Source of the DNA: a bacterium
Lineage (GTDB): Bacteria > Patescibacteriota > Minisyncoccia > UBA6257 > UBA9933
Direction of reading: 5' to 3'
Assembly: GCA_021796335.1 (NCBI GenBank)
Contig: JAJYHZ010000001.1
Location: 219,454 to 283,453, forward strand
DNA: 64,000 bases
The translations under genes and the position numbers were made by a program. Shown piece after piece: positions 7,990 through 38,891 of the stretch (position 1 is its first letter; every line of letters begins with the position of its first letter). The notes beneath the pieces are model-generated. The model had not been told where the DNA came from and made no database searches. It was given only the letters and a program-made list of their open reading frames with translations.

Positions 7990-8228
7990 TTAAAGAAAAT
8001 CAATTCTTTATGAAATTAATATTTATTTTAGAATTTTTTTATTAAAAACAAAAGGGCCTGCTCTGATTAATGCGATAATATGAATACCAGCGCATTCTTC
8101 TAAAAATATCGTTTATATTTGAAACGCAGTTGGAAGATCATATCTTCAATTCCTTTTAAACGAAGAAGTTTAAGCGAAATTTTATTTCGGTATCCCGCCA
8201 AAAAATAGAGTCATTTCAAAATAGGTAA

Positions 8229-8266
8229 AAATTCGCTTTAAAAATTAAAAAACCCCGCCAATTAAA
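8229..8266 (-). terminator. rho-independent terminator downstream of the LamG-domain gene
   Basis: Minus-strand RNA reads aaaacccugc-loop-gcgggguuuu followed by uuaauuuuu. The stem is 10 bp with one G-U pair. Confidence 0.45.
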
Positions 8267-8416
8267 GCAGGGTTTTTAATTAATTTCATCGTTTTCTCTC
8301 CTGAGTCTCGTCGGGAGTTATCTGACGGAATATCCTTCCATCCCCTTTTCTTAATAATCTGTATATCACTCTCATATGCATCGAAACTTAATCACTCGGA
8401 TCTCGGGACGGACCGC

Positions 8417-11152
8417 TTATGGATTCGTAATCGTGCAGGTGTTGCCGCAGGAGCCTGCCGGCGTCTTACCGGTCATGGTTTCGTAATGTGCGTCGATCTG
8501 CGCCTGCGAAAGCAAGTGATCATACACTGCCACCTTACCCACCGCGCCCTTGAACCATGTGTCCATCGCCATCGTACCGATGGTAAGAGGTGATGAACCC
8601 GCTTTCGGCGCAATATCGTACTGGCTCATACAGCCAGTCGGCGCGTGCGCAGCAAAATCTTGCTTAACGCCATCCACCCAGATGTTAATGGTGCCTGGAT
8701 ATGCCGAAGAACAAGCCGGGGGTGTTTGTGTCGTGTCATATTCCGCAACGACATAAACCCACATACCAGTCTTAAACAAGCCTGCGACCGGCTGCCAATC
8801 CGCCGCGCTGCCTAAACCCGCGGATGGATTAAAGACATAAGCGGAGAAGCGGTTCGGACGGTTTTCAGGGGTGACAGCGCTGTAAAGACGCGCCTCCCAC
8901 TCACAGCTTGGCGAGTAGTTCTCGCATTTTCCCATCCAATCAACATAGCCATCACCGCTTGCGTTCGGGAACTGAAGTGTGTCAAGCCGCACCCAACCTT
9001 CCCAGGTAAGCTGACCGGTAGTCGGGATGGAAAGCGCAGGATTAGACGGAACCGTAAGATACTCGCTTGAACCGTTAAAGTCGGCGGCGATATCGCCGTT
9101 AGGCATTGCTACCGTGCTTGGCGTACCGCCTTTGTAGGTGCCGTCATTACCGTGGCCAGAAAGATCTGTCTCGTGCCCCGACGAAGACGAATTCATCGAA
9201 AAATACATAACCGGATTATCGGCAAGTATGAGCGAGTCGTATGTCGAAGCCGGAACTGAAGCTGATACTGGGTCAAGAGTGGAAATCGGCGCCAAAGCGC
9301 TATTTACTGCAACCGATGAATTAGAAAAAACATAATTTTTGAACGAAGCATCCATAAAATCTGTTCTAACTCCCCCATAACCGGTGTTTGTCATCGGCGA
9401 TCCTCCTTGTGATCCGTTATCGGTTGTCTGAACCGCTAAAACCCAATTTCCAGTATTATTCTTGTCAATATAAACCTGGATAAGAACCGAACCATCCGGC
9501 TGGTTAGTTACAACCGAGCGAAGTCCGATCCATGTATTTAGCGGAATTAAATTGGGATTACTGTTCTGATTGTAATTTCCGGAATAAACCTTGTTTAAAG
9601 CAAGTGTGTAGTATGCGCCATTTTCTTTTTTCTTAATTACGGCCTGCCCGTCAACACGAATACCGGTATAATAAACATTATTCTGATCGACGTATCTATT
9701 AAAAAAGAAAATGCCATTTGACGCGTTCCTATTCGGACTCGAACTTAACCAATACTTAGACACATTAAAATACGCCTGTTGCGATTCATTTTGATTTGAT
9801 GATTTAGTTACCAAACGAAAGATATTTTGCGGATGATAACCGTTATCAGTATCCACCGGATTTGTACTGTTGTACAAAATTCTCCATGGATCATTACTCG
9901 GCAAGCTTCCCGTAATTGATTTTCCCACTCCATTATTTACATAAAAGTATGCGCCCGAACTTAACCACCAATCCGAATCAGCACTTGCACTCATGGAATC
10001 TGCTTCAGTAATTATTCGATTTGCATTGAGTCCATAATAATTAGAAGTGGAAGTAGAAATGTTTACAGTAGAAGAACTTGTCTGGATATTTGTCGTCGAC
10101 GTTGTTGGACTGTTTGATTGAATTGACGTATTGCTTAATGTCTCACTGCCAGCGTCTGCAAAAGCATTAATGTAATTGAGATCTGTTGCTGTAGATTGTT
10201 CTGTTCGAAACGCATAACCAAGACCAACTGTTTTTTCTGACGATCCTTGCGGAGTTACGTAAATATCATAACTATGGTTGGGAATATCGATTGCCAAGCG
10301 GAATGTGTAAGTATTCCCCGCAGTATAAGGAATTGCGGTTTGAGCTTGATAACTTGAGCCGTTTCTGGCATCAATGTTCCCGTTAGTATTGAATCTGACG
10401 ATTGCGGCAAGATCAGTAAATTTTGAAGCTAATTGAGAAGACAGTCCGATAACGCCGTCCATATTATTTCCGTTTGGTATTGCATCAAAAGTAGCAGTGA
10501 ATTTGCCATTTTGAGCAGTTATTGGATTTCCTTGCCAGACGGAATTTGTTGTTATTGAGTTGTTTGTATTTGTTGTTGTCGTCGACGTTGTTGGACTGTT
10601 TGATTGAATTGACGTATTGCTTAATGTCTCACTGCCAGCGTCTGCAAAAGCATTAATGTAATTGAGATCTGTTGCTGTAGATTGTTCTGTTCGAAACGCA
10701 TAACCAAGACCAACTGTTTTTTCTGACGATCCTTGCGGAGTTACGTAAATATCATAACTATGGTTGGGAATATCGATTGCCAAGCGGAATGTGTAAGTAT
10801 TCCCCGCAGTATAAGGAATTGCGGTTTGAGCTTGATAACTTGAGCCGTTTCTGGCATCAATGTTCCCGTTAGTATTGAATCTGACGATTGCGGCAAGATC
10901 AGTAAATTTTGAAGCTAATTGAGAAGACAGTCCGATAACGCCGTCCATATTATTTCCGTTTGGTATTGCATCAAAAGTAGCAGTGAATTTGCCATTTTGA
11001 GCAGTTATTGGATTTCCTTGCCAGACGGAATTTGTTGTTATTGTTAAGGTTGAATTAGTAACGGCATTAGCTGGTAAAATTATCAAGCTAAGCGCCATTA
11101 TTCCCAATAAAACACCTGAAAATGCTTTATTGAGATTAGAAGCATAATTCAT
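8417..11152 (-). CDS. secreted repeat protein with C-terminal LamG/concanavalin-A-like domain
   Basis: 911 aa with a signal peptide (MNYASNLNKAFSGVLLGIMALSLIILPANA). It has two identical ~162-aa modules and S/T-rich linkers. The C-terminal segment ...DLSGHGNDGTYKGG...FNGSSEYLTVP...WEGWVRL is typical of LamG-like jellyroll domains. The 3' third (8417-9400) is much GC-richer than the rest of the gene. Confidence 0.75.
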   Translation of the reverse strand: MNYASNLNKAFSGVLLGIMALSLIILPANAVTNSTLTITTNSVWQGNPITAQNGKFTATFDAIPNGNNMDGVIGLSSQLASKFTDLAAIVRFNTNGNIDARNGSSYQAQTAIPYTAGNTYTFRLAIDIPNHSYDIYVTPQGSSEKTVGLGYAFRTEQSTATDLNYINAFADAGSETLSNTSIQSNSPTTSTTTTNTNNSITTNSVWQGNPITAQNGKFTATFDAIPNGNNMDGVIGLSSQLASKFTDLAAIVRFNTNGNIDARNGSSYQAQTAIPYTAGNTYTFRLAIDIPNHSYDIYVTPQGSSEKTVGLGYAFRTEQSTATDLNYINAFADAGSETLSNTSIQSNSPTTSTTNIQTSSSTVNISTSTSNYYGLNANRIITEADSMSASADSDWWLSSGAYFYVNNGVGKSITGSLPSNDPWRILYNSTNPVDTDNGYHPQNIFRLVTKSSNQNESQQAYFNVSKYWLSSSPNRNASNGIFFFNRYVDQNNVYYTGIRVDGQAVIKKKENGAYYTLALNKVYSGNYNQNSNPNLIPLNTWIGLRSVVTNQPDGSVLIQVYIDKNNTGNWVLAVQTTDNGSQGGSPMTNTGYGGVRTDFMDASFKNYVFSNSSVAVNSALAPISTLDPVSASVPASTYDSLILADNPVMYFSMNSSSSGHETDLSGHGNDGTYKGGTPSTVAMPNGDIAADFNGSSEYLTVPSNPALSIPTTGQLTWEGWVRLDTLQFPNASGDGYVDWMGKCENYSPSCEWEARLYSAVTPENRPNRFSAYVFNPSAGLGSAADWQPVAGLFKTGMWVYVVAEYDTTQTPPACSSAYPGTINIWVDGVKQDFAAHAPTGCMSQYDIAPKAGSSPLTIGTMAMDTWFKGAVGKVAVYDHLLSQAQIDAHYETMTGKTPAGSCGNTCTITNP
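10085..11043. repeat. perfect tandem direct repeat, 2 x 486 bp, inside the CDS
   Basis: The sequence tgtcgtcgacgttgttggactgtttgattgaattgacgtattgcttaatg... recurs with an offset of exactly 486 bp (10091 vs 10577). About 470 bp of each copy are identical by eye. Confidence 0.85.
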
Positions 11153-11591: not shown

Positions 11592-12671
11592 CTACGGCTG
11601 AATTTCTCTAACACTCATTTTTTTATAAATCAGACCGTTTTCATTTACGTTGTCGCTTCTCCAATATACCGCAATGTTCGGTTTGCCCGATTCGGACCCC
11701 GGACGCTTGTTACTATCGGTCAGTTTCAGCGCCGGATTTATGCCAGGTGCGCAAGCCACCCCTCCGACTCCGAAGTTATTGCCATCATCGACAAATTCAT
11801 TTATTTTTTTCCAATCTCCGCCGTTTGCGCCATCCGTCAAATCCATATAAGCTTCAAGCTTTACTTTACCTTCGGAGAGATCATAAACCACGAATTTATA
11901 TCCGATCCACCGATCGTATGGCATTCCGTTGGGCCATATTGTTTTATTTGCGATTGCCGTTGAATTCGGATGGCTTGTCTCTTTTTCAAAATCCGTATGA
12001 CCGTCGTATCTTATCCTCGCATCAATCCCCCTGGTATCGCAGAGATTCTGCAGTTCGTTTCCGGTAGCTCCGTGATTTGTGCGCGCAACTCCTTCAATGC
12101 CGCCCCATGGAGTGTTTTGGTCGGAAATACGCTCGGCATAAACAGTCATTTCTACATTATGCCAACTTTGTTTAAGAGCGGGATCGTAAATATACATTCG
12201 CGGAGTTGACCCTGATATGTATAAAAGCCCCTTACCGTCAGCGTAATATGCCGCATCTCCGTGATCGGCGTCAAACCATAAATCTTGAGGATCAACTCCG
12301 GAAAATTTTCTTGCTATACCGTCATTCCATTGTGAAAACCATTCTTTTCCATCCGCAGCCGTAGGATAAATTTCGGCTATTCCAAAGACATCTTTACCGG
12401 ATATCTTTGCTTTTGGAATTGTTCCCGAGCCGAATCCATAACCTGAAAAAGCCGAAGAAGTATTATTTTTGTACGATGAATTATTTTCAAATCCGTAATT
12501 TTCTAAAGTGCTCGGAGAAGTTGAAGTATATTGCGGCACTACGCCAGGCTTGGAAGATTTTTTTTTGCTTTTTGCAGCTTCGAATACAAACACGGCAAAT
12601 ATTGCAAAAATCAAAATTGCTATAAAAAATATCGTTTTGGGTTTTAATTTTAATCCTGCAAATTTACTCAT
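11592..12671 (-). CDS. exported hypothetical protein, probable beta-jellyroll (lyase/lectin-like) fold
   Basis: 359 aa with an N-terminal signal anchor ([17 protein letters not shown]). The body is rich in W, Y, G and D. Its composition is beta-sheet-like with no ATP-binding or nucleotide-binding motifs. GC content is moderately elevated. Confidence 0.55.
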
Positions 12672-12866: not shown

Positions 12867-15617
12867 TTATTGCGGATTTAGCATTTTTATTCCATAATCA
12901 TTAGTCACCACCTTTACTCCGGTCTGCGCGATATAATCCACTATTTGCTGGAATAATGCCGGCGTGATCGCGTAATTATCATTACTTGAATCAACCCTGT
13001 GAAATACTAAAACCAGCCATGTTTTGTCGGCGATTGACTGGTTAATCCAATTTTCGAACTGAGCCAAAGTGGTCGTATTTACCGCTTCCTGATATTTCAA
13101 TAAAAAATGGTCTGTTGATTTATCATTAAATCCGCTTTGCGTCGTTCTCGCTCCGACATATAATCCTGAATTTTTTAAAATCTGAACGGAAGTTGCGTCA
13201 TATTCTCCAAAAGGATAAGCAAATGTTGTTACATTTATGCCGATGCTATTTAGGGCATCCCACGAACCAGTAATTTCGTTCTGTTGGTCCGCATACGATA
13301 ATTGCGGCAAATGCGAATGATCAATCGTGTGCGAACCAATTTCCATTCCTTGGCTCTGCATATCCAAAACTTGAGCCGCATTTACGTAATCCGTATAATT
13401 GCCGTTAAGCGTATTGGTTATTATGTAAAATGTCCCTGATAAATTCGCTTGTTTTAAAATCGGAAAAGCTGTCTGATAAGCAGATATGTCACCATCATCG
13501 AAATTCAACGAAACCATCCCTTCAGAAAATTTATAAGGATTGTTTCCTAAATCTTTTAAATAATAATCATCTACTTTTAAAGATCCGACTCCGGTCAAAC
13601 TATGAAAAATAGTTATGGTTTTTGTGCCTGACGGAACTGCAAATTTTACATCAACCCCATTCCAGTTGTTTGCAAGAGTCGGACTCGCAATCGTTTGATA
13701 TTGATATGTCCCATCGGACATATGTAGCGCGACTTCAACCGTGTTTTGCGCAGTAGCCATATATTTATCCGAAAATTCATATAAATCTCCCGAAGTCGCA
13801 TTAACTTCAGAAAAATACCATTTCGCATCGCCGTTAGTATAGGAAGAAATATCAATTTCAGCCGCTTTACTATTAGTGCCGTCCACACCCGAAACCGGAT
13901 AAATAAAATTTGGAGTATTTACTCCCCATCCTCCCTCATACCAATTTTGCGGCAAACCTGTTGCGGAATCTGCAATTTCAAAGGATGGGTTCTTAATTAA
14001 ATTATCAGTTGATGTAGGAGGCGGAGGAGGAGGCGTCGGAGAAGTTATATCATTTAAATTAAATTCCCCGGTTGTTAATGAACCGACGCTCACCAAAGAG
14101 TGCAAAATTGTAACAGATTGCGAATTAGCAGGAGCAATAAAAGTGGACGTTGCAACTGCCGGGCTAATTGATGCCCCGGGCCTTGATAAAAGCAAATAAG
14201 AATATGTTCCGTCTGCTAAATGCACTCTGGCAATTATTGCCGTTGATGTGTCGGCGGTATAATAGTCGGAAAATTGGTATTGATGGCCGGGAATAACCGC
14301 AACATCCTTAAAATACCATCTGGAAGCTCCGCTTGTATATGAAGATATGCTTATTTTTGCCGCATCATCATTATTAAATCCCGCGACAGGATAAGTAAAT
14401 GTTGTTTGGTTAACGCCCCAATTGCCCTTATACCAGCCCTGTGGCAGACCGCTTGAAGCATCCATTAATGAAAGCGAGGGATTGAAAATTAAGTTATCAG
14501 TATTTGTTGCCGCAGGCGGCGAAGGCGGAGGAGAAGGCGTTGATGTTGATAAATAAAAATTGTCGGTTGTCAGCGAACCTGCGCTGTCCAAATATTGGTA
14601 AATATTAAGCGATTGCACGCCCGTCGGCACGACAAAAGTTGTTGTGCTGTTTTTCCATGCGTTGGATGCCGATTGAGGAAAATCAATATAAGAATAATAC
14701 CCGCCGGATAAAGTATAGCGTATTTCCAATGTAGTCGGAACTGTTGCAATGTAGGAATCGGAGAAAGTGTAAGTTTGTCCCGGTGTTGCCGGAATATCGC
14801 CGAAGGTCCACTTGGCATCTCCGCTTGTGTATGAAGTCATATCAACCTTGGCTGCATTCCCTCCGTCAATGCCCGGTACGGAATAAGTAAAGTTCGATTG
14901 GTTTATTCCCCATTTATCTTCTGTCCATCCCGCAGGCAAGCCGTCTGCGCCTACTGAATCAAAGGAACCATTATTAATTAAATTGCCGCCAGAAGACGAT
15001 GGAGGCGGAGAAATTATTGAATTTGCAATCAAGGAAAAATTATCTACTGTGAGCGATCCCACATTATCTAAATATTGATATATTGTAAATGACTTAACTC
15101 CGGCAGGAACCGTAAAAGTAGATGTGGAAGATTGCCACGTATCCGAAATGCTTGGAAATACAATGTCGTCATAAGTATAATTCCCATTAATTAAGAGATA
15201 TCTGACCTCAATCGTAGTCGGAACTGTTGCAATATAAGAATCGGAGAAAGTGTAAGTTTGTCCCGGTGTTGCCGGAATATCGCCGAAGGTCCACTTGGCA
15301 TCTCCGCTTGTGTATGAAGTCATATCAACCTTGGCTGCATTCCCTCCGTCAATGCCCGGTACGGGATAAGTAAAGTTCGATTGGTTTATTCCCCAGCTGT
15401 CTTGCGACCAACCTGCCGGCGCTCCATTTGCGCCCGTAATTTCAAAAGACCCATTGGGAATAAGATTCGATAAATCGCTTGCTTTTGTCTTAGAAATTAT
15501 CGGAAAATTCAAGGAGTTAAAAACAAAAATTATTGAAAAAAATACAACTAGGAACCTAAGAAAAACTCTTTTCATAGTATTGAAGAAAATAAAACGACCT
15601 TTTATTTTAAATTTCAA
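12867..15617 (-). CDS. secreted protein with 4 CBM-like modules and a C-terminal polysaccharide deacetylase (CE4/NodB) domain
   Basis: 916 aa with a signal anchor. It has four ~160-aa modules (NGSFE...GWxxDxWGxNQSxFTY...YTSGDAKW...Y), which are CBM4/9-like, joined by P/S linkers. The C-terminus has NFDDGDISAY...GSHTIDHSHL, which are CE4 deacetylase motifs. Confidence 0.75.
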   Translation of the reverse strand: MKFKIKGRFIFFNTMKRVFLRFLVVFFSIIFVFNSLNFPIISKTKASDLSNLIPNGSFEITGANGAPAGWSQDSWGINQSNFTYPVPGIDGGNAAKVDMTSYTSGDAKWTFGDIPATPGQTYTFSDSYIATVPTTIEVRYLLINGNYTYDDIVFPSISDTWQSSTSTFTVPAGVKSFTIYQYLDNVGSLTVDNFSLIANSIISPPPSSSGGNLINNGSFDSVGADGLPAGWTEDKWGINQSNFTYSVPGIDGGNAAKVDMTSYTSGDAKWTFGDIPATPGQTYTFSDSYIATVPTTLEIRYTLSGGYYSYIDFPQSASNAWKNSTTTFVVPTGVQSLNIYQYLDSAGSLTTDNFYLSTSTPSPPPSPPAATNTDNLIFNPSLSLMDASSGLPQGWYKGNWGVNQTTFTYPVAGFNNDDAAKISISSYTSGASRWYFKDVAVIPGHQYQFSDYYTADTSTAIIARVHLADGTYSYLLLSRPGASISPAVATSTFIAPANSQSVTILHSLVSVGSLTTGEFNLNDITSPTPPPPPPTSTDNLIKNPSFEIADSATGLPQNWYEGGWGVNTPNFIYPVSGVDGTNSKAAEIDISSYTNGDAKWYFSEVNATSGDLYEFSDKYMATAQNTVEVALHMSDGTYQYQTIASPTLANNWNGVDVKFAVPSGTKTITIFHSLTGVGSLKVDDYYLKDLGNNPYKFSEGMVSLNFDDGDISAYQTAFPILKQANLSGTFYIITNTLNGNYTDYVNAAQVLDMQSQGMEIGSHTIDHSHLPQLSYADQQNEITGSWDALNSIGINVTTFAYPFGEYDATSVQILKNSGLYVGARTTQSGFNDKSTDHFLLKYQEAVNTTTLAQFENWINQSIADKTWLVLVFHRVDSSNDNYAITPALFQQIVDYIAQTGVKVVTNDYGIKMLNPQ
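14731..15420. repeat. intragenic direct repeat, period 483 bp, ~200 bp near-identical
   Basis: gtagtcggaactgttgcaat...gcattccctccgtcaatgcccggtacgg occurs at 14731 and again at 15214. It corresponds to two of the four CBM-like modules. Confidence 0.75.
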
Positions 15618-35156: not shown

Positions 35157-37550
35157 TTATACAAGTTCCGTTTCTTTTTCCCTTACAAAGAAATGATAAA
35201 TGCCGAATCCTATTAGAAGTCCGAGTAAAAGATCGAACAGCCAGTTGCCGAACAGAGTCCCTATGGTTCCAAGTATTGAAGCAGAAATCGACGGGCCGCC
35301 CGCCACGATTATAGTCAGGTAAGAACTTACGGCTTGGAATCTTCCCCTGTAATCTGAATAGTTCATAATCGAAGTAAATACCAGTGAATCTCCCCCTTTG
35401 GCAGAATTATTTACTTTTACTTTCATATTGACGGCGCTTTGGCTGTTTGCCGCAACAGTTCCGATCATAAACTTAAGATTATTATTCTCTTGAGAAGAAG
35501 GCTGTATATCTGCGCTTTCATAAGAGACTTCGTTCGGCAAAGCAATTTGCAAAACCGCATTTGAAACCGCGCGATTACCGCTATTCTTATACACGACGGT
35601 ATAAGTCATTTCATCTCCCGCATTCGGATTATTATTATCAACCGAAGGAGTGAGTGAAACTGTTATGCCCGGAGCCGCAGGAGGAGTGTAAACCGCTATC
35701 CCCGTACTTGGAATTGCATACGCCGGAGATTTAGTAGTAAAAGTAAGCATACTTCCGTAACTCGTACCCGCCGCGTTTTGCGCAACCGCCCTGAAATAAT
35801 ATGTCGTGTTTGAATTTAATCCGGATAAAGCGAACGATAAAGGAACGGACAATGAATCATGCCCGGCCGGCTGAACAGTTGTTTCGAATCCAAAAGAAGG
35901 GGTCGCCCCCCATTCAAACCAGGCGTTTGTAAATAGATTATTAGTTATAACCGCTCCGTTTAATACGGTGGAGTTCTGGTATACAATGCTTGCCGGTAAA
36001 GTCGTCACCATCGGTGCTTGCCCGCCTGCGCTTATAACTGCTCCGCTGCCGGTCGTAAATGTCAGAATACTTCCGTAATTCGTGCCAAAAGAATTTTGTG
36101 CAACCGCTCGATAATAATAAACGGCATTAGGAGTAAGGTTGCTTATAAAAGTATTTACGTTCATAAACCCGTTAATCTGCTGGAATCCAGACGTATATCC
36201 CAAGTTTTGTGTCGGTCCGTATTCAAACCACATACTTGCAACTGATCCGTTTGAATTCACGTCTCCATTTAAGGTTGCGGAATTCGAGGTAATATTAGTT
36301 GCCGCATCAGTATTGACGGTCGGAGCAGAAGAGATAAATCCCGTGCCGAATTGAGAGGTATTAAACGACACTATGCTTCCGTAAGTCGTGCCAAAAGAAT
36401 TTTGAGCGACTATGCGAAAATAATATGTAGTATTTGTGTTTAATGAGGAGAGGAAACTGGCGATATTAACCGCAAAATTTCCGCTTCCCGCATCCTGTGA
36501 TGCCGTTGTGAATCCCAAAGATCCGGTCGGTCCGTATTCAAACCAAACATTGGTTTCCGAATTGTTCGAATTAACAGTTCCGTTCAAAACCGCCGAATTT
36601 TGCGTAATATTAGTGGCCAAATTAGTGGTCACGATAGGAGCCACTCCGTTTATTGCGCCAGTTTGAGTTGTAAACGAAATCACATTCCCATAAGTTGTCC
36701 CAAAGGAATTTTGAGCAACTGCCCGGAAATAATAAGTTTGTCCAGAATTAAGTCCGCTCAAAAATGAAGTTATATTGAAAGCCGAATTTCCGCTGCCAAT
36801 ATTTTGGAACCCAATAGTTGATCCCAAAGAAGGGCTTGTTCCATATTCAAACCAAACGGTGGTATTTGATCCGTTTGGATTAACGCTGCCGTTTAAACTT
36901 GCGGAATTTTGCGAAATATTTGTTACAAATTGATTTAAGATAGCCGGAGCTTGGTTTTGCGCGGACTGCGACTGGCTGCTTAATTGGGCCCTGAAAACAA
37001 TATAGCCCTGTGCGCTCCATCCCGGCGCGATATCACCTATATTCAGGCCGGAAAAAGAAACTATTTCCGAACCGTTTTGGCCGTTTAATAAACCGGTTGA
37101 ATTACTCGAATCATGATTAGCGAACCATTTTACCGTTCCGGGAAGAAAAGCCAGGGTTTGAGAATTTCCCGAACTGATATTTAATGAAACATTCCCATTC
37201 GCCGAATTCGCGTTAGAAGAAAAAATTGTCCCGTTTATTGTTTGAGAAGTAAAATTTCCCGTTGGTAAATTTACGCTCGCATGCGTCTGTGAAGCCGTAA
37301 CATCCGAAGTGTTGTGGTAATAAACCAAAAAACTGATTACGTCTCCGGGATTTGCGGAAACAGAAGTTGACCAGCAGCTAGTGCATCCCGGATGCTGCGT
37401 ATAATTGGAAATCTGCAATGTCGGATAATCTTTGGGGTCAGTATTAAATGTCGCTGTTGCCGCTTGCGCGCTCAATAACGGCAAAAATATCGCCATTGTA
37501 AAAATTCCGACAAAACCTGCTTTTAAAATTATTGTTAACTTTTTTTTCAT
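35157..37550 (-). CDS. cell-surface repeat protein (4 Fn3/PKD-like modules + DUF11-like domain + C-terminal TM anchor)
   Basis: 797 aa with a signal peptide. It has four ~95-aa repeats (NITxNSAxLNGxVNxN..xWFEYG...YYFRAVAQNSFGTxYG). The DUF11-like segment is TYTVVYKNSGN. The C-terminal segment WLFDLLLGLLIGFGIYHFF is a TM helix. Confidence 0.7.
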   Translation of the reverse strand: MKKKLTIILKAGFVGIFTMAIFLPLLSAQAATATFNTDPKDYPTLQISNYTQHPGCTSCWSTSVSANPGDVISFLVYYHNTSDVTASQTHASVNLPTGNFTSQTINGTIFSSNANSANGNVSLNISSGNSQTLAFLPGTVKWFANHDSSNSTGLLNGQNGSEIVSFSGLNIGDIAPGWSAQGYIVFRAQLSSQSQSAQNQAPAILNQFVTNISQNSASLNGSVNPNGSNTTVWFEYGTSPSLGSTIGFQNIGSGNSAFNITSFLSGLNSGQTYYFRAVAQNSFGTTYGNVISFTTQTGAINGVAPIVTTNLATNITQNSAVLNGTVNSNNSETNVWFEYGPTGSLGFTTASQDAGSGNFAVNIASFLSSLNTNTTYYFRIVAQNSFGTTYGSIVSFNTSQFGTGFISSAPTVNTDAATNITSNSATLNGDVNSNGSVASMWFEYGPTQNLGYTSGFQQINGFMNVNTFISNLTPNAVYYYRAVAQNSFGTNYGSILTFTTGSGAVISAGGQAPMVTTLPASIVYQNSTVLNGAVITNNLFTNAWFEWGATPSFGFETTVQPAGHDSLSVPLSFALSGLNSNTTYYFRAVAQNAAGTSYGSMLTFTTKSPAYAIPSTGIAVYTPPAAPGITVSLTPSVDNNNPNAGDEMTYTVVYKNSGNRAVSNAVLQIALPNEVSYESADIQPSSQENNNLKFMIGTVAANSQSAVNMKVKVNNSAKGGDSLVFTSIMNYSDYRGRFQAVSSYLTIIVAGGPSISASILGTIGTLFGNWLFDLLLGLLIGFGIYHFFVREKETELV

Positions 37551-37706: not shown

Positions 37707-38891
37707 TTAATTCGCCGGGAAAGGTGCCGGGCCATCAGGCTCGCCACTATTTGGCGGCGGACCGTTTGCCGGAAGAGGCGCGGGACCTGTTGGCCCCGGA
37801 ATGACGAACCTCTGCGGCTCCGGTTTTTTTATTTGCTTTCCGCCGGCATAACCGCCGACGGCTCCTAACAGTGCCCCCGCAGCTTCGCAGCGCGGGTCGC
37901 TATCGTGGTGTGGGAAAAAAATCCTATATAGCCCGGCTAGTACTCCTCCAGCCAGAAAATATGGCTGGTACCGCCGGGCCGCGAAGCCAAGTGCCAATAA
38001 TGCCGAACTGCTAGTCGAGGTAATAGTGTCCACTCCGATACAATGTACTACCGGAACGGACACTGAAGCGAACGCGGTCCCGCATTTGCTTTGAACCGCT
38101 ACGCGCATCTGGGAAACTTCTTTCCTTTTTGCGACGTAGAATGTTTTTACAATAGGCTGATTGTAATCGCCGACTACTTCAGCCTCAGTTCTGCTGCCAT
38201 CAAACTCTACCCAGCCGTATGTTTGAGTCCCGGCCGGATTTATGGAGGTCGAAATCAAATACCCGTTCTCAACCTCCATCATCTGATCGACTGTAATAGT
38301 CGGCGACGCGCATGCCACCGGCTTTTCAACAACCGGAGGAGGGACATTAACTGACGCGGGAGGAGGAACTTTAAGGCTTTCAATGGCCTTTCGCAGTTCC
38401 TTTATCTGATTTTTTAATCCGCCTATCTCAGCTTTTGCTTCAGCTTTAGCCTCAACCCTAACCGCCGCCTTTCGTACACGCACATACTTCTTTTTTACTC
38501 GTCGCTTTTTTACACCGCCAACAATGCCTGGGCATAGAGCCTCCTCTTCACAGAGGTGCGGCCCCCATACCAACGCTACCCACTGGCCGTCTTGCCGCTG
38601 AACCTGGACCGGCGACCCGAACATCATTACCGGCCCTTCTTTTCTCACTATATCATACGCCACTTCAACCGGCGTATTTTTTTTAATCCACAAAGCGCCG
38701 CCCACGGTCCGGACATACACATCTGCCGGAGACAAGATTTTTTTCACTTCGATCTTCTGCGTCTTTTTTAAAGACGCATAGTTTTTTTGAATATTCACAA
38801 TCCCCACCTGCCAGCCGAAGCTAACCGAGGGAACAAAAAACCCGACCAAAACGGCAACTGTAAAAAACGAAAAAAATTGCTTCCTCATCAT
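37707..38891 (-). CDS. compositionally foreign (GC-rich) exported hypothetical protein
   Basis: 394 aa. Shine-Dalgarno site aaAGGAGGtttta before the ATG and an N-terminal signal/TM helix. It has a KAEAKAE coiled-coil segment, a glycine-zipper-like GALLGAVGGYAGG and a Pro-rich tail. The DNA is visibly GC-rich against an AT-rich background. Confidence 0.6.
   Translation of the reverse strand: MMRKQFFSFFTVAVLVGFFVPSVSFGWQVGIVNIQKNYASLKKTQKIEVKKILSPADVYVRTVGGALWIKKNTPVEVAYDIVRKEGPVMMFGSPVQVQRQDGQWVALVWGPHLCEEEALCPGIVGGVKKRRVKKKYVRVRKAAVRVEAKAEAKAEIGGLKNQIKELRKAIESLKVPPPASVNVPPPVVEKPVACASPTITVDQMMEVENGYLISTSINPAGTQTYGWVEFDGSRTEAEVVGDYNQPIVKTFYVAKRKEVSQMRVAVQSKCGTAFASVSVPVVHCIGVDTITSTSSSALLALGFAARRYQPYFLAGGVLAGLYRIFFPHHDSDPRCEAAGALLGAVGGYAGGKQIKKPEPQRFVIPGPTGPAPLPANGPPPNSGEPDGPAPFPAN

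Follow-up and report, generated by a model that had tools for sequence, protein, structure and literature searches.

How did a single gene for a secreted protein in an ultra-small, Wolfebacteria-like Patescibacterium (CPR) come to carry a GC-rich 3' part and, upstream of it, two identical copies of one module? The gene lies in a 64-kb stretch of DNA that was analyzed as a whole and is referred to below as the window. We consider it probable that the gene is a mosaic glycan-binding gene, with a tail from a GC-richer Patescibacterium and a far more recent in-frame duplication of a CBM. Composition, comparison with other genomes, and the anatomy of the repeat bear on this reading, and several alternatives are weighed against it.

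Architecture of the gene and its product

The open reading frame was present as originally described, on the minus strand and encoding 911 aa. In order, the protein consists of a putative signal peptide, two PF22585-type CBMs, a CBM66/DUF1080-like fold, and a LamG_3 module, with Ser/Thr/Asn-rich linkers connecting the four jelly-roll modules (Table 1). The predicted signal peptide, as read from the translation, shows a basic n-region and then a hydrophobic core, with A-N-A as the cleavage motif. AT-rich DNA of host-like character surrounds the terminator-like hairpin, which lies ∼140 nt past the stop codon. Neighboring genes encode a CBM4_9-rich polysaccharide deacetylase.

Table 1. Features of the locus, in window coordinates
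Feature	Coordinates	Strand	Remarks
Gene for the secreted protein (911 aa, four jelly-roll modules)	8417..11152	-	ORF list; stop codon 8417-8419
Putative Sec signal peptide, residues 1-30	11063..11152	-	MNYASNLNKAFSGVLLGIMALSLIILPANA/V; predicted from reading the translation
Repeat copy A, 468 bp	10576..11043	-	PF22585-type (Sialidase-like CBM) module 1
Spacer CAACAAATACAAACAACT, 18 bp	10558..10575	-	In frame; encodes Thr/Asn-rich linker residues
Repeat copy B, 468 bp	10090..10557	-	100% identical to copy A
Middle module, residues ∼366-612	9317..10057	-	AT-rich
GC-rich segment of foreign composition	8393..9300	unassigned	Change-point fit, codon statistics, 79 other genomes
C-terminal LamG_3-type module, residues 637-911	8420..9244	-	Six invariant cysteines
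Intrinsic-terminator-like hairpin, then T run	8248..8277	-	

With both copies present, the whole protein scores 39.7 bits against PF22585 (cutoff, 27), while one copy by itself reaches 23.4 bits, under the cutoff; many homologues bear a precomputed PF22585 label. The middle module matched no Pfam or NCBIfam family, even at an E value of ≤10. Its predicted fold is a ConA-like jelly roll, with CBM66 and DUF1080-type domains as the nearest folds; the likeness to the CBM66 of Bacillus subtilis levanase (PDB entry 4b1m) and to DUF1080-type jelly rolls (3imm and 3hbk) is one of resemblance only, with no family match. The assignment of the 3' part to a LamG/ConA-like jelly roll proved sound: the C-terminal part scanned alone matches Pfam PF13385 (Laminin_G_3) at 38.1 to 38.4 bits (cutoff, 27.6; E value of about 2e-9) over profile positions 1 to 150 of 151, and all aligned homologues of the module (58/58) match the same profile. 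A whole-protein Pfam scan missed this domain, which was found only when the C-terminal part was scanned by itself. The module has the two-sheet beta-sandwich of a jelly-roll fold.

NCBIfam returned no match for any module or neighboring gene, and Rfam and ARAGORN found nothing in the 64-kb window. A promoter scan did not rise above shuffled expectation. Nothing pointed to a diversity-generating retroelement or a comparable system, and the only long repeats between positions 8000 and 16000 are two domain duplications.

Composition and relatives of the C-terminal segment

The maximum-likelihood GC-rich segment spans 908 bp, with a GC content of 0.547 versus 0.375 in the surrounding 5 kb (log-likelihood ratio, 44.9), and is the highest-GC 900-bp stretch of the window (mean, 0.386; sd, 0.037). 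Its start lies in the linker, 19 codons ahead of the LamG module, and its end 24 nt past the stop codon. Along the gene, GC3 climbs from about 0.30 to 0.55-0.66 near residues 620 to 640. The contrast drawn in the preliminary description between a GC-rich 3' ∼1 kb and an AT-rich 5' part and genome is thus borne out, and the sliding-window GC and codon-usage analysis it had suggested returned a nonuniform GC content and foreign codon choice. The C-terminal part has a GC3 of 0.571, compared with 0.391 ± 0.034 in 40 host genes (z = 5.35). The first ∼618 codons, including the middle module, give no foreign codon signal, their GC3 of 0.31 being a little lower than the host mean (0.39).

It could be argued that no transfer took place and that a Gly/Ala/Pro-rich amino-acid composition alone makes the C-terminal module GC rich. 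Composition does contribute: under host codon usage, the C-terminal peptide would have a GC content of 0.495 and a GC3 of 0.454, the respective values for the N-terminal part being 0.416 and 0.404, so that amino acids account for about half of the excess in raw GC. Several other genomes also have a module a few points GC-richer than the host. Nevertheless, the observed GC content of 0.544 exceeds the expected 0.495 by a z of 5.2, and the GC3 lies above that of every host 300-codon segment, none of which exceeds 0.46. Synonymous choice also differs in kind, with GGC/GGT supplying 92% of Gly codons and CTT 69% of Leu codons in the C-terminal part, where the host uses GGA (46%) and TTA/TTG (67%). 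Moreover, the high GC content extends over the 19 linker codons and 24 noncoding nucleotides, and homologues of the module in low-GC CPR hosts show a GC content of 0.40 to 0.45 (among 27 tabulated loci) and a GC3 of 0.26 to 0.37. We therefore regard amino-acid composition as a very improbable sole cause. The break in composition and codon usage is sharp (z of about 5, with the amino-acid sequence controlled), as expected of horizontally acquired DNA.

Comparison with other genomes places the segment further apart. Module-minus-flank GC ranges from -0.09 to +0.08 in the 27 tabulated loci and is +0.16 in the window, which is the outlier for module-minus-host GC among 80 genomes, the other 79 loci falling within about ±0.09. 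In a neighbor-joining tree, computed without bootstrap, the window module is sister to that of locus L004, inside a CPR subclade with a host GC content of 0.54 to 0.61. L004 is the closest relative of the LamG module (85% amino-acid and 76.6% nucleotide identity) and shares the combination of middle and LamG modules, yet identity in the middle module is 42%. Loci L009 and L012 have a middle module of similar identity to that of the window (43%) and a LamG module of just 68 to 69%. Phylogenetic discordance of the LamG module is thus indicated both by this tree, which lacks bootstrap values, and by the unequal identity to L004.

Third-position changes polarized with L005 as the outgroup number 51 GC>AT and 6 AT>GC in the window lineage, mostly C>T and G>A, versus 11 and 23, respectively, in the L004 lineage; GC-rich outgroups can inflate the GC>AT count in such a polarization. 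Taken with the foreign codons, the position as an outlier, and the placement in a GC-rich subclade, this drift supports the earlier suggestion of capture from a higher-GC donor. From these sequence comparisons, the LamG segment reads as an imported and partly ameliorated module, for which we infer the direction and mechanism of transfer. Partial amelioration implies that the capture event is not brand new.

Judging from the same comparisons, the donor most likely belonged to the Patescibacteria as well, not to a distant phylum. Near-identical donor DNA was not found, the best match being 76.6% at the nucleotide level, so the donor lineage was read from a distance tree without bootstrap. As for a phage vector, the LamG module occurs on only 1 contig among 2.9 million in IMG/VR, at 60% amino-acid identity. 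Neither repeats nor mobile-element genes occur at the segment borders. To look for a native LamG module that the import may have displaced, 80 module sequences were compared with the entire window by tblastn; hits beyond 8380-9320 did not rise above noise (best E value, 0.016). Because no remnant was seen, replacement and addition of the imported piece are indistinguishable.

Recombination within the linker probably brought in the last ∼294 codons from a GC-richer Patescibacterium of the type of L004, L001, and L005; besides the LamG_3-type module, the piece would have carried half of the linker on one side and the stop codon plus a further 24 nt on the other. It would have either added a new C-terminal module or replaced an earlier one, and the tail would then have drifted partway toward the AT-rich composition of the host.

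The same discontinuity could in principle come from an assembly chimera, with reads from the LamG gene of some GC-rich organism joined into the contig. This is a metagenome-assembled genome, and a module so highly conserved among co-occurring taxa could mislead assemblers. Such an event would need two frame-keeping crossovers inside 908 bp flanked at either end by host-like DNA, and the DNA of the closest homologue, 76.6% identical, is too dissimilar for graph merging. The identical sequence also occurs in a second public assembly, although the two assemblies may share reads and are not fully independent, and the intermediate GC3 and GC>AT drift are consistent with residence in this genome. 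We consider a chimera exceedingly unlikely. Selection on the DNA of the module was also considered as a cause of its GC content and is disfavored by the low-GC versions of the module in low-GC hosts, which argue likewise against both pure amino-acid composition and a chimera.

Copy number of the N-terminal module

The second peculiarity of the gene is its repeated 5' module. Tandem Repeats Finder (TRF) reported a repeat at 10090-11043 with a period of 486 and 100% matches. The period and perfection of the repeat were as first described, but the identical stretch is 468 bp long and the copies are separated by a unique 18-bp spacer, rather than standing plainly head to tail; the repeat begins at 10090 and not at 10085. 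In the two-copy form, the spacer junctions read …GACGACAA / CAACAAATACAAACAACT / CAATAACAAC…. The spacer occurs nowhere else in the 64-kb window and is absent from a public contig with one copy (L084). The copies are identical, in frame, and joined at a defined junction, as in a genuine tandem duplication.

That one-copy contig (k141-named, 201 kb) is otherwise 100% identical to the window over 21 kb. A 201,998-bp NCBI contig also has the 749-aa one-copy form, which shares one 90% protein cluster with the 911-aa form, whose member P0241 lies on a 420,705-bp NCBI contig. Tandem copies of the module, 2 to 4 in number and 50 to 99% identical, were present in all relatives checked (23/23). Exact-match scans of JGI metagenome contigs retrieved none with the spacer junction and none with a repeat-internal 38-mer. 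These observations fit the three possibilities raised at the outset, namely, a recent duplication, a hotspot of copy-number variation, or an assembly problem. The difference between one and two copies reflects either true copy-number variation or short-read collapse.

An expansion artifact, with a true gene of one copy as in L084, would account for the two contigs carrying the 749-aa form with the rest 100% identical, and assemblers are notoriously prone to err at perfect repeats. This alternative is nevertheless distinctly unlikely in our estimation. The 18-bp spacer and its two junctions have no other occurrence in the window and none in L084, the spacer preserves the reading frame, and arrays of 2 to 4 tandem copies are the rule in the family. 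The one-copy form, in turn, holds nothing that the two-copy form lacks, so it could arise by collapse or by real recombinational deletion. An assembler cannot invent a spacer with its junctions, and this unique sequence speaks for two copies as the real state of the gene.

On the mosaic reading, the N-terminal PF22585-type CBM would have been duplicated in frame, separately from and much later than the import of the tail, with the 18-bp filler joining the two identical 468-bp copies. Recombination between identical copies could delete one again, so that copy number, and with it binding avidity, may vary. Variation in tandem-repeat copy number is a general phenomenon in bacterial surface adhesins. 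The present gene resembles those cases in its identical in-frame repeats, its low-complexity linkers, and a repeat number that differs between otherwise identical genomes; it differs in that only one versus two copies are seen, a difference that assembly collapse may also explain. Disagreement of short-read assemblies over the domain copy number of a surface protein is relevant to comparisons of CPR surface proteomes from metagenome-assembled genomes.

The LamG_3 subfamily and its possible activity

The gene product appears to be a secreted, multivalent glycan-binding protein, with glycan binding and adhesion predicted from fold only, and it is probably cell surface associated. No catalytic domain is recognizable in the 911-aa protein. 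Concanavalin/LamG proteins of CPR have been described as putative attachment factors (PMC11310336, PMC12911398). Like other PF13385-matching secreted proteins of Patescibacteria, this one combines an HMM match and a jelly-roll fold with secretion and a multimodular layout in a Patescibacterium host. Compared with PF13385 proteins at large, its module belongs to a much tighter subfamily, defined by six invariant Cys residues and a CEWEAR[ML]Y motif.

Known structures offer distant parallels. Domain 4 of AbnA, the extracellular GH43 arabinanase of Geobacillus stearothermophilus (PDB entries 5hon and 5ho0), is only 17 to 18% identical to the module; unlike AbnA, the window protein lacks a GH43 or other catalytic domain, and its disulfide pattern, with three bonds predicted in the LamG module, and conserved motifs are subfamily specific. 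Identity to the Hc-N lectin-like jelly roll of clostridial neurotoxins and NTNH (e.g., 1fv2, 3obr, and 3rsj) is 11 to 14%, and the window protein has neither a translocation or protease domain nor a toxin context. A PDB sequence search returned only a pentraxin match (E value of ∼0.8), and no characterized member of the subfamily is known as far as the searched collections show.

An alternative to glycan binding is that the C-terminal module is an effector (enzyme or toxin), that the N-terminal modules merely target it, and that the effector cassette is what gets swapped. The module is unusually conserved, with 55 to 85% identity across Patescibacteria, Polyangia, Actinomycetota, and Acidobacteriota, and charged and aromatic residues are numerous among its 51 invariant positions; charged residues conserved this strongly would fit an enzyme too. 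It is almost always C terminal, behind varied targeting domains (CBM2, LysM, F5/8-C, dockerin, fn3, or a pilin N terminus). A poly-gamma-glutamate hydrolase domain (PF05908) occurs in related scaffolds of repeat and middle modules and, in P0144, lies on the N-terminal side of the repeats. Even so, we judge an effector role to be unlikely.

A broader and still speculative proposal, to which we give a somewhat better though low chance, is that the ∼275-aa C-terminal module is a horizontally mobile cassette with one strongly constrained activity (recognition of a conserved glycan of the bacterial envelope, enzymatic or toxic) that is swapped among bacteria living or preying on bacteria. If so, it would be plugged behind LysM, CBM2, dockerin, pilin N termini, and repeat/middle lectins, and the window would show one cassette swap in progress.

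Domain shuffling, intragenic horizontal transfer, and tandem-repeat variation of surface proteins are already well established, and current understanding of them is unchanged; the gene is a clear but ordinary instance of surface-protein evolution through module swapping and copy-number change. What it offers is a sharply bounded case of subgenic module exchange between Patescibacteria that differ widely in GC content, with the linker breakpoint and ongoing amelioration both visible in one gene. It also draws attention to an uncharacterized, unusually conserved LamG_3 subfamily common to episymbiotic CPR and soil Polyangia, Actinomycetota, and Acidobacteriota, which could suit binding and structure studies on cell-cell attachment. 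The subfamily is small: among 25,909 LamG-like representatives, about 50 clusters (50% identity) score >400 bits for it.

Architecture of the gene and the repeated module

The 911-aa protein joins two copies of a PF22585-type module (rep) to a middle jelly-roll module (mid; 9317-10057, residues ~366-612) and a C-terminal LamG_3-type module (Pfam PF13385; residues 637-911), hereafter the LamG module. The whole protein scores 39.7 bits against PF22585, while a single copy alone scores 23.4 bits (cut-off, 27). The best named matches of the host SecA (60-69% identity) come from Wolfebacteria, Paceibacterota or Patescibacteria, which places the host within the Patescibacteria, close to Wolfebacteria.

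Features of the 911-aa gene and its neighbours
Feature	Position	Strand	Remark
ORF of the 911-aa protein	8417-11152	minus	ORF list
Putative signal peptide, Sec-like	residues 1-30		A-N-A end; reading of the sequence
Repeat copies, 468 bp each	10576-11043 and 10090-10557		both PF22585-type (Sialidase-like CBM) modules
In-frame 18-bp spacer, CAACAAATACAAACAACT	10558-10575		between repeat copies
GC-rich segment, 908 bp	8393-9300		maximum-likelihood two-breakpoint fit
Terminator-like hairpin	8277-8248		within AT-rich DNA
Secreted-looking 359-aa protein	11592-12671	minus	without family match
916-aa protein	12867-15617	minus	four CBM4_9-like modules and polysaccharide deacetylase

Two perfect tandem repeats with a period of 486 bp had been reported for this gene, and apart from small coordinate details they are borne out. 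Tandem Repeats Finder returned 10090-11043 (period 486, 100% matches) as the sole array scoring at least 100 in the 64 kb; the copies are identical, and the sequences flanking them are unrelated. Among database proteins the nearest is P0121, which at 749 aa (exactly 911 minus 162) differs from the window protein solely in having one copy. Its 201-kb contig, L084 (ENA ERZ27233565, k141_1681766), matches the window at 100% across 21 kb with zero mismatches, and its 468-bp unit aligns to each of the two window copies. The 90%-identity cluster of P0121 also includes a 911-aa member, presumably from the window's own contig. Two public assemblies of one strain therefore differ in copy number.

The preliminary description had offered a very recent duplication, copy-number variation or an assembly collapse or expansion. 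The identical copies agree with the first, and an expansion artefact in the window is disfavored: the spacer is absent elsewhere in the window and from L084, and because such a unique sequence is beyond what an assembler can create, the two-copy form is very likely genuine. Every part of the one-copy form is also present in the two-copy form; having no sequence of its own, it may reflect either graph collapse or a real recombinational deletion between identical copies.

Tandem copies were present in all relatives examined (23/23), numbering 2 to 4 with adjacent identities of 50-99%; in the related protein P0124, adjacent copies share 96.6% and 99.3% identity. Thus, repeated module amplification is a family trait, of which the window is the youngest case. 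Amplification also recurs at the locus, as the deacetylase gene carries its own internal tandem duplication (14727-14912/15209-15395, period 483; 97.9% identity across 186-187 bp, inside a 264-nt repeat at 86%), which is older than that of the 911-aa gene.

Composition and origin of the LamG module

The preliminary description also noted a GC-rich 3' part of the gene and suggested its capture from a high-GC donor. The GC and codon-usage check that it proposed confirmed a nonuniform composition. GC is 0.547 in the fitted segment versus 0.375 in the surrounding 5 kb, making this the GC-richest 900-bp stretch of the window (mean, 0.386; sd, 0.037), and GC3 climbs from ~0.30 to 0.55-0.66 near residue 620-640. 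Recoded with host codon usage, the C-terminal peptide already reaches GC 0.495 and GC3 0.454, and about half of the raw excess is amino-acid composition. The rest persists: observed GC of the C-terminal part is 0.544 (z = 5.2 versus 2000 host-codon recodings of the same peptide), and its GC3 is 0.571 versus 0.391±0.034 in 40 host genes (z = 5.35), with no host 300-codon segment above 0.46. Codon preference is also of a different type: glycine is encoded by GGC/GGT in 92% of cases (host, GGA 46%) and leucine by CTT in 69% (host, TTA/TTG 67%). A better control than the host genes is the module's composition elsewhere. Across 27 tabulated loci, LamG module GC minus flank GC ranged from -0.09 to +0.08, and the low-GC Patescibacteria (CPR) hosts among them had module GC of 0.40-0.45 and GC3 of 0.26-0.37. 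The window value, +0.16, is the maximum among 80.

In a neighbor-joining tree, the window LamG module is sister to that of locus L004 (85% amino acid, 76.6% nucleotide identity), within a subclade of Patescibacteria with host GC of 0.54-0.61; low-GC hosts fall on separate branches. The mid+LamG architecture recurs in L004 and four further CPR genomes. Between the window and L004, mid is 42% and LamG 85% identical; against loci L009 and L012, mid is 43% and LamG just 68-69%. The two modules record discordant histories. With third-position changes polarized using locus L005 as the outgroup, the window lineage shows 51 GC>AT and 6 AT>GC changes, chiefly C>T and G>A, and the L004 lineage shows 11 and 23. 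GGC-to-GGT and CTC-to-CTT shifts relative to GC-rich relatives agree with this bias.

An assembly chimera could produce a segment of this kind but is unlikely here, given that the segment keeps the reading frame and is bordered on either side by host-like DNA, that the closest known DNA is too divergent for merging in an assembly graph, and that an identical sequence occurs in the second public assembly. Taken together, codon usage, GC outlier status, the tree, module discordance and substitution bias argue for import followed by partial amelioration. The donor was probably another, GC-richer Patescibacterium, and half the linker, the LamG module, the stop codon and 24 nt past it would have entered by recombination within the linker. 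The capture proposal is thus upheld, although for a partly ameliorated segment and not a brand-new arrival. The window contains no trace of a native module that might have been displaced; the event would have been replacement of an older module or addition.

The LamG module falls in a remarkably tight subfamily. The best 120 of 647 matches share 58-76% identity across ~275 residues, and an alignment of 58 members has 51 invariant columns, six cysteines among them. In an exhaustive profile search, ~50 representatives (at 50% identity) scored >400 bits, below which scores merge gradually into 25,909 general LamG-like proteins. The module is C-terminal in nearly all cases, behind CBM2, LysM, F5/8 type C, dockerin, fn3, a pilin N-methylation motif, PF22585 or mid. 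Hosts are Patescibacteria, many Polyangia, Actinomycetota and Acidobacteriota; phage carriage is rare (one IMG/VR contig, 60% identity). No characterized member was apparent, with no match in a PDB sequence search or NCBIfam. One archaeal MAG, Thaumarchaeota TA_9 (L020 6001-6834 and L083), likewise carries the conserved LamG module, whose GC there (0.47; flanks, 0.39) gives an excess second only to the window's; a further transfer could explain it, as could contamination of the bin.

Proposed function and other features of the window

From its four lectin-type jelly rolls, its putative signal peptide and its neighbors (the secreted deacetylase with CBM4_9 modules and the 359-aa protein), we infer that the 911-aa protein is secreted or lies at the surface, binds glycans multivalently and plausibly serves in host-cell attachment or cell-wall polysaccharide handling. 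CBM duplication would increase avidity. The CPR literature speaks of concanavalin/LamG proteins in general terms only, as putative attachment factors (PMC11310336, PMC12911398). No catalytic domain was found in the 911-aa protein. Charged residues of the LamG module are strongly conserved, which would suit an enzymatic or effector role that we consider improbable. The related protein P0123 (842 aa) has two mid modules with a homologue of the 359-aa protein fused between them, suggesting a functional link between the 359-aa and 911-aa proteins. The 359-aa protein itself weakly resembles the C-terminal half of mid (30% over 101 aa, E = 2e-7). The locus is a tidy example of already known processes within a known protein superfamily.

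In four related proteins (P0144, P0219, P0230 and P0235), a rep+rep+mid-like scaffold occurs together with PF05908, a poly-gamma-glutamate hydrolase domain, and an annotated LamG module is absent. Because the repeats of P0144 begin only at residue 289 and its mid-like region forms the protein end, PF05908 appears to lie N-terminal to the scaffold and not in the place of LamG. Such combinations indicate that the scaffold has recombined with varied partner domains.

A second GC-rich island spans a whole 394-aa ORF (37707-38891, minus strand; GC 0.50-0.61, GC3 0.51; flanks, ~0.32), which may be another foreign gene. Its product has a hydrophobic N-terminal segment, contains the stretch KAEAKAEAKAE and is rich in Pro at the C-terminus, with no Pfam or NCBIfam match. 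Directly adjoining it is a 797-aa secreted protein (35157-37550, minus strand) with a DUF11 domain and 4-5 fn3-like repeats, in which the pattern ...WFEYG...YYFRAVAQNSFGT.YG... recurs. Rfam and ARAGORN found no tRNA, rRNA or other RNA genes in the 64 kb, and nearly all window ORFs of at least 150 aa lie on the minus strand.
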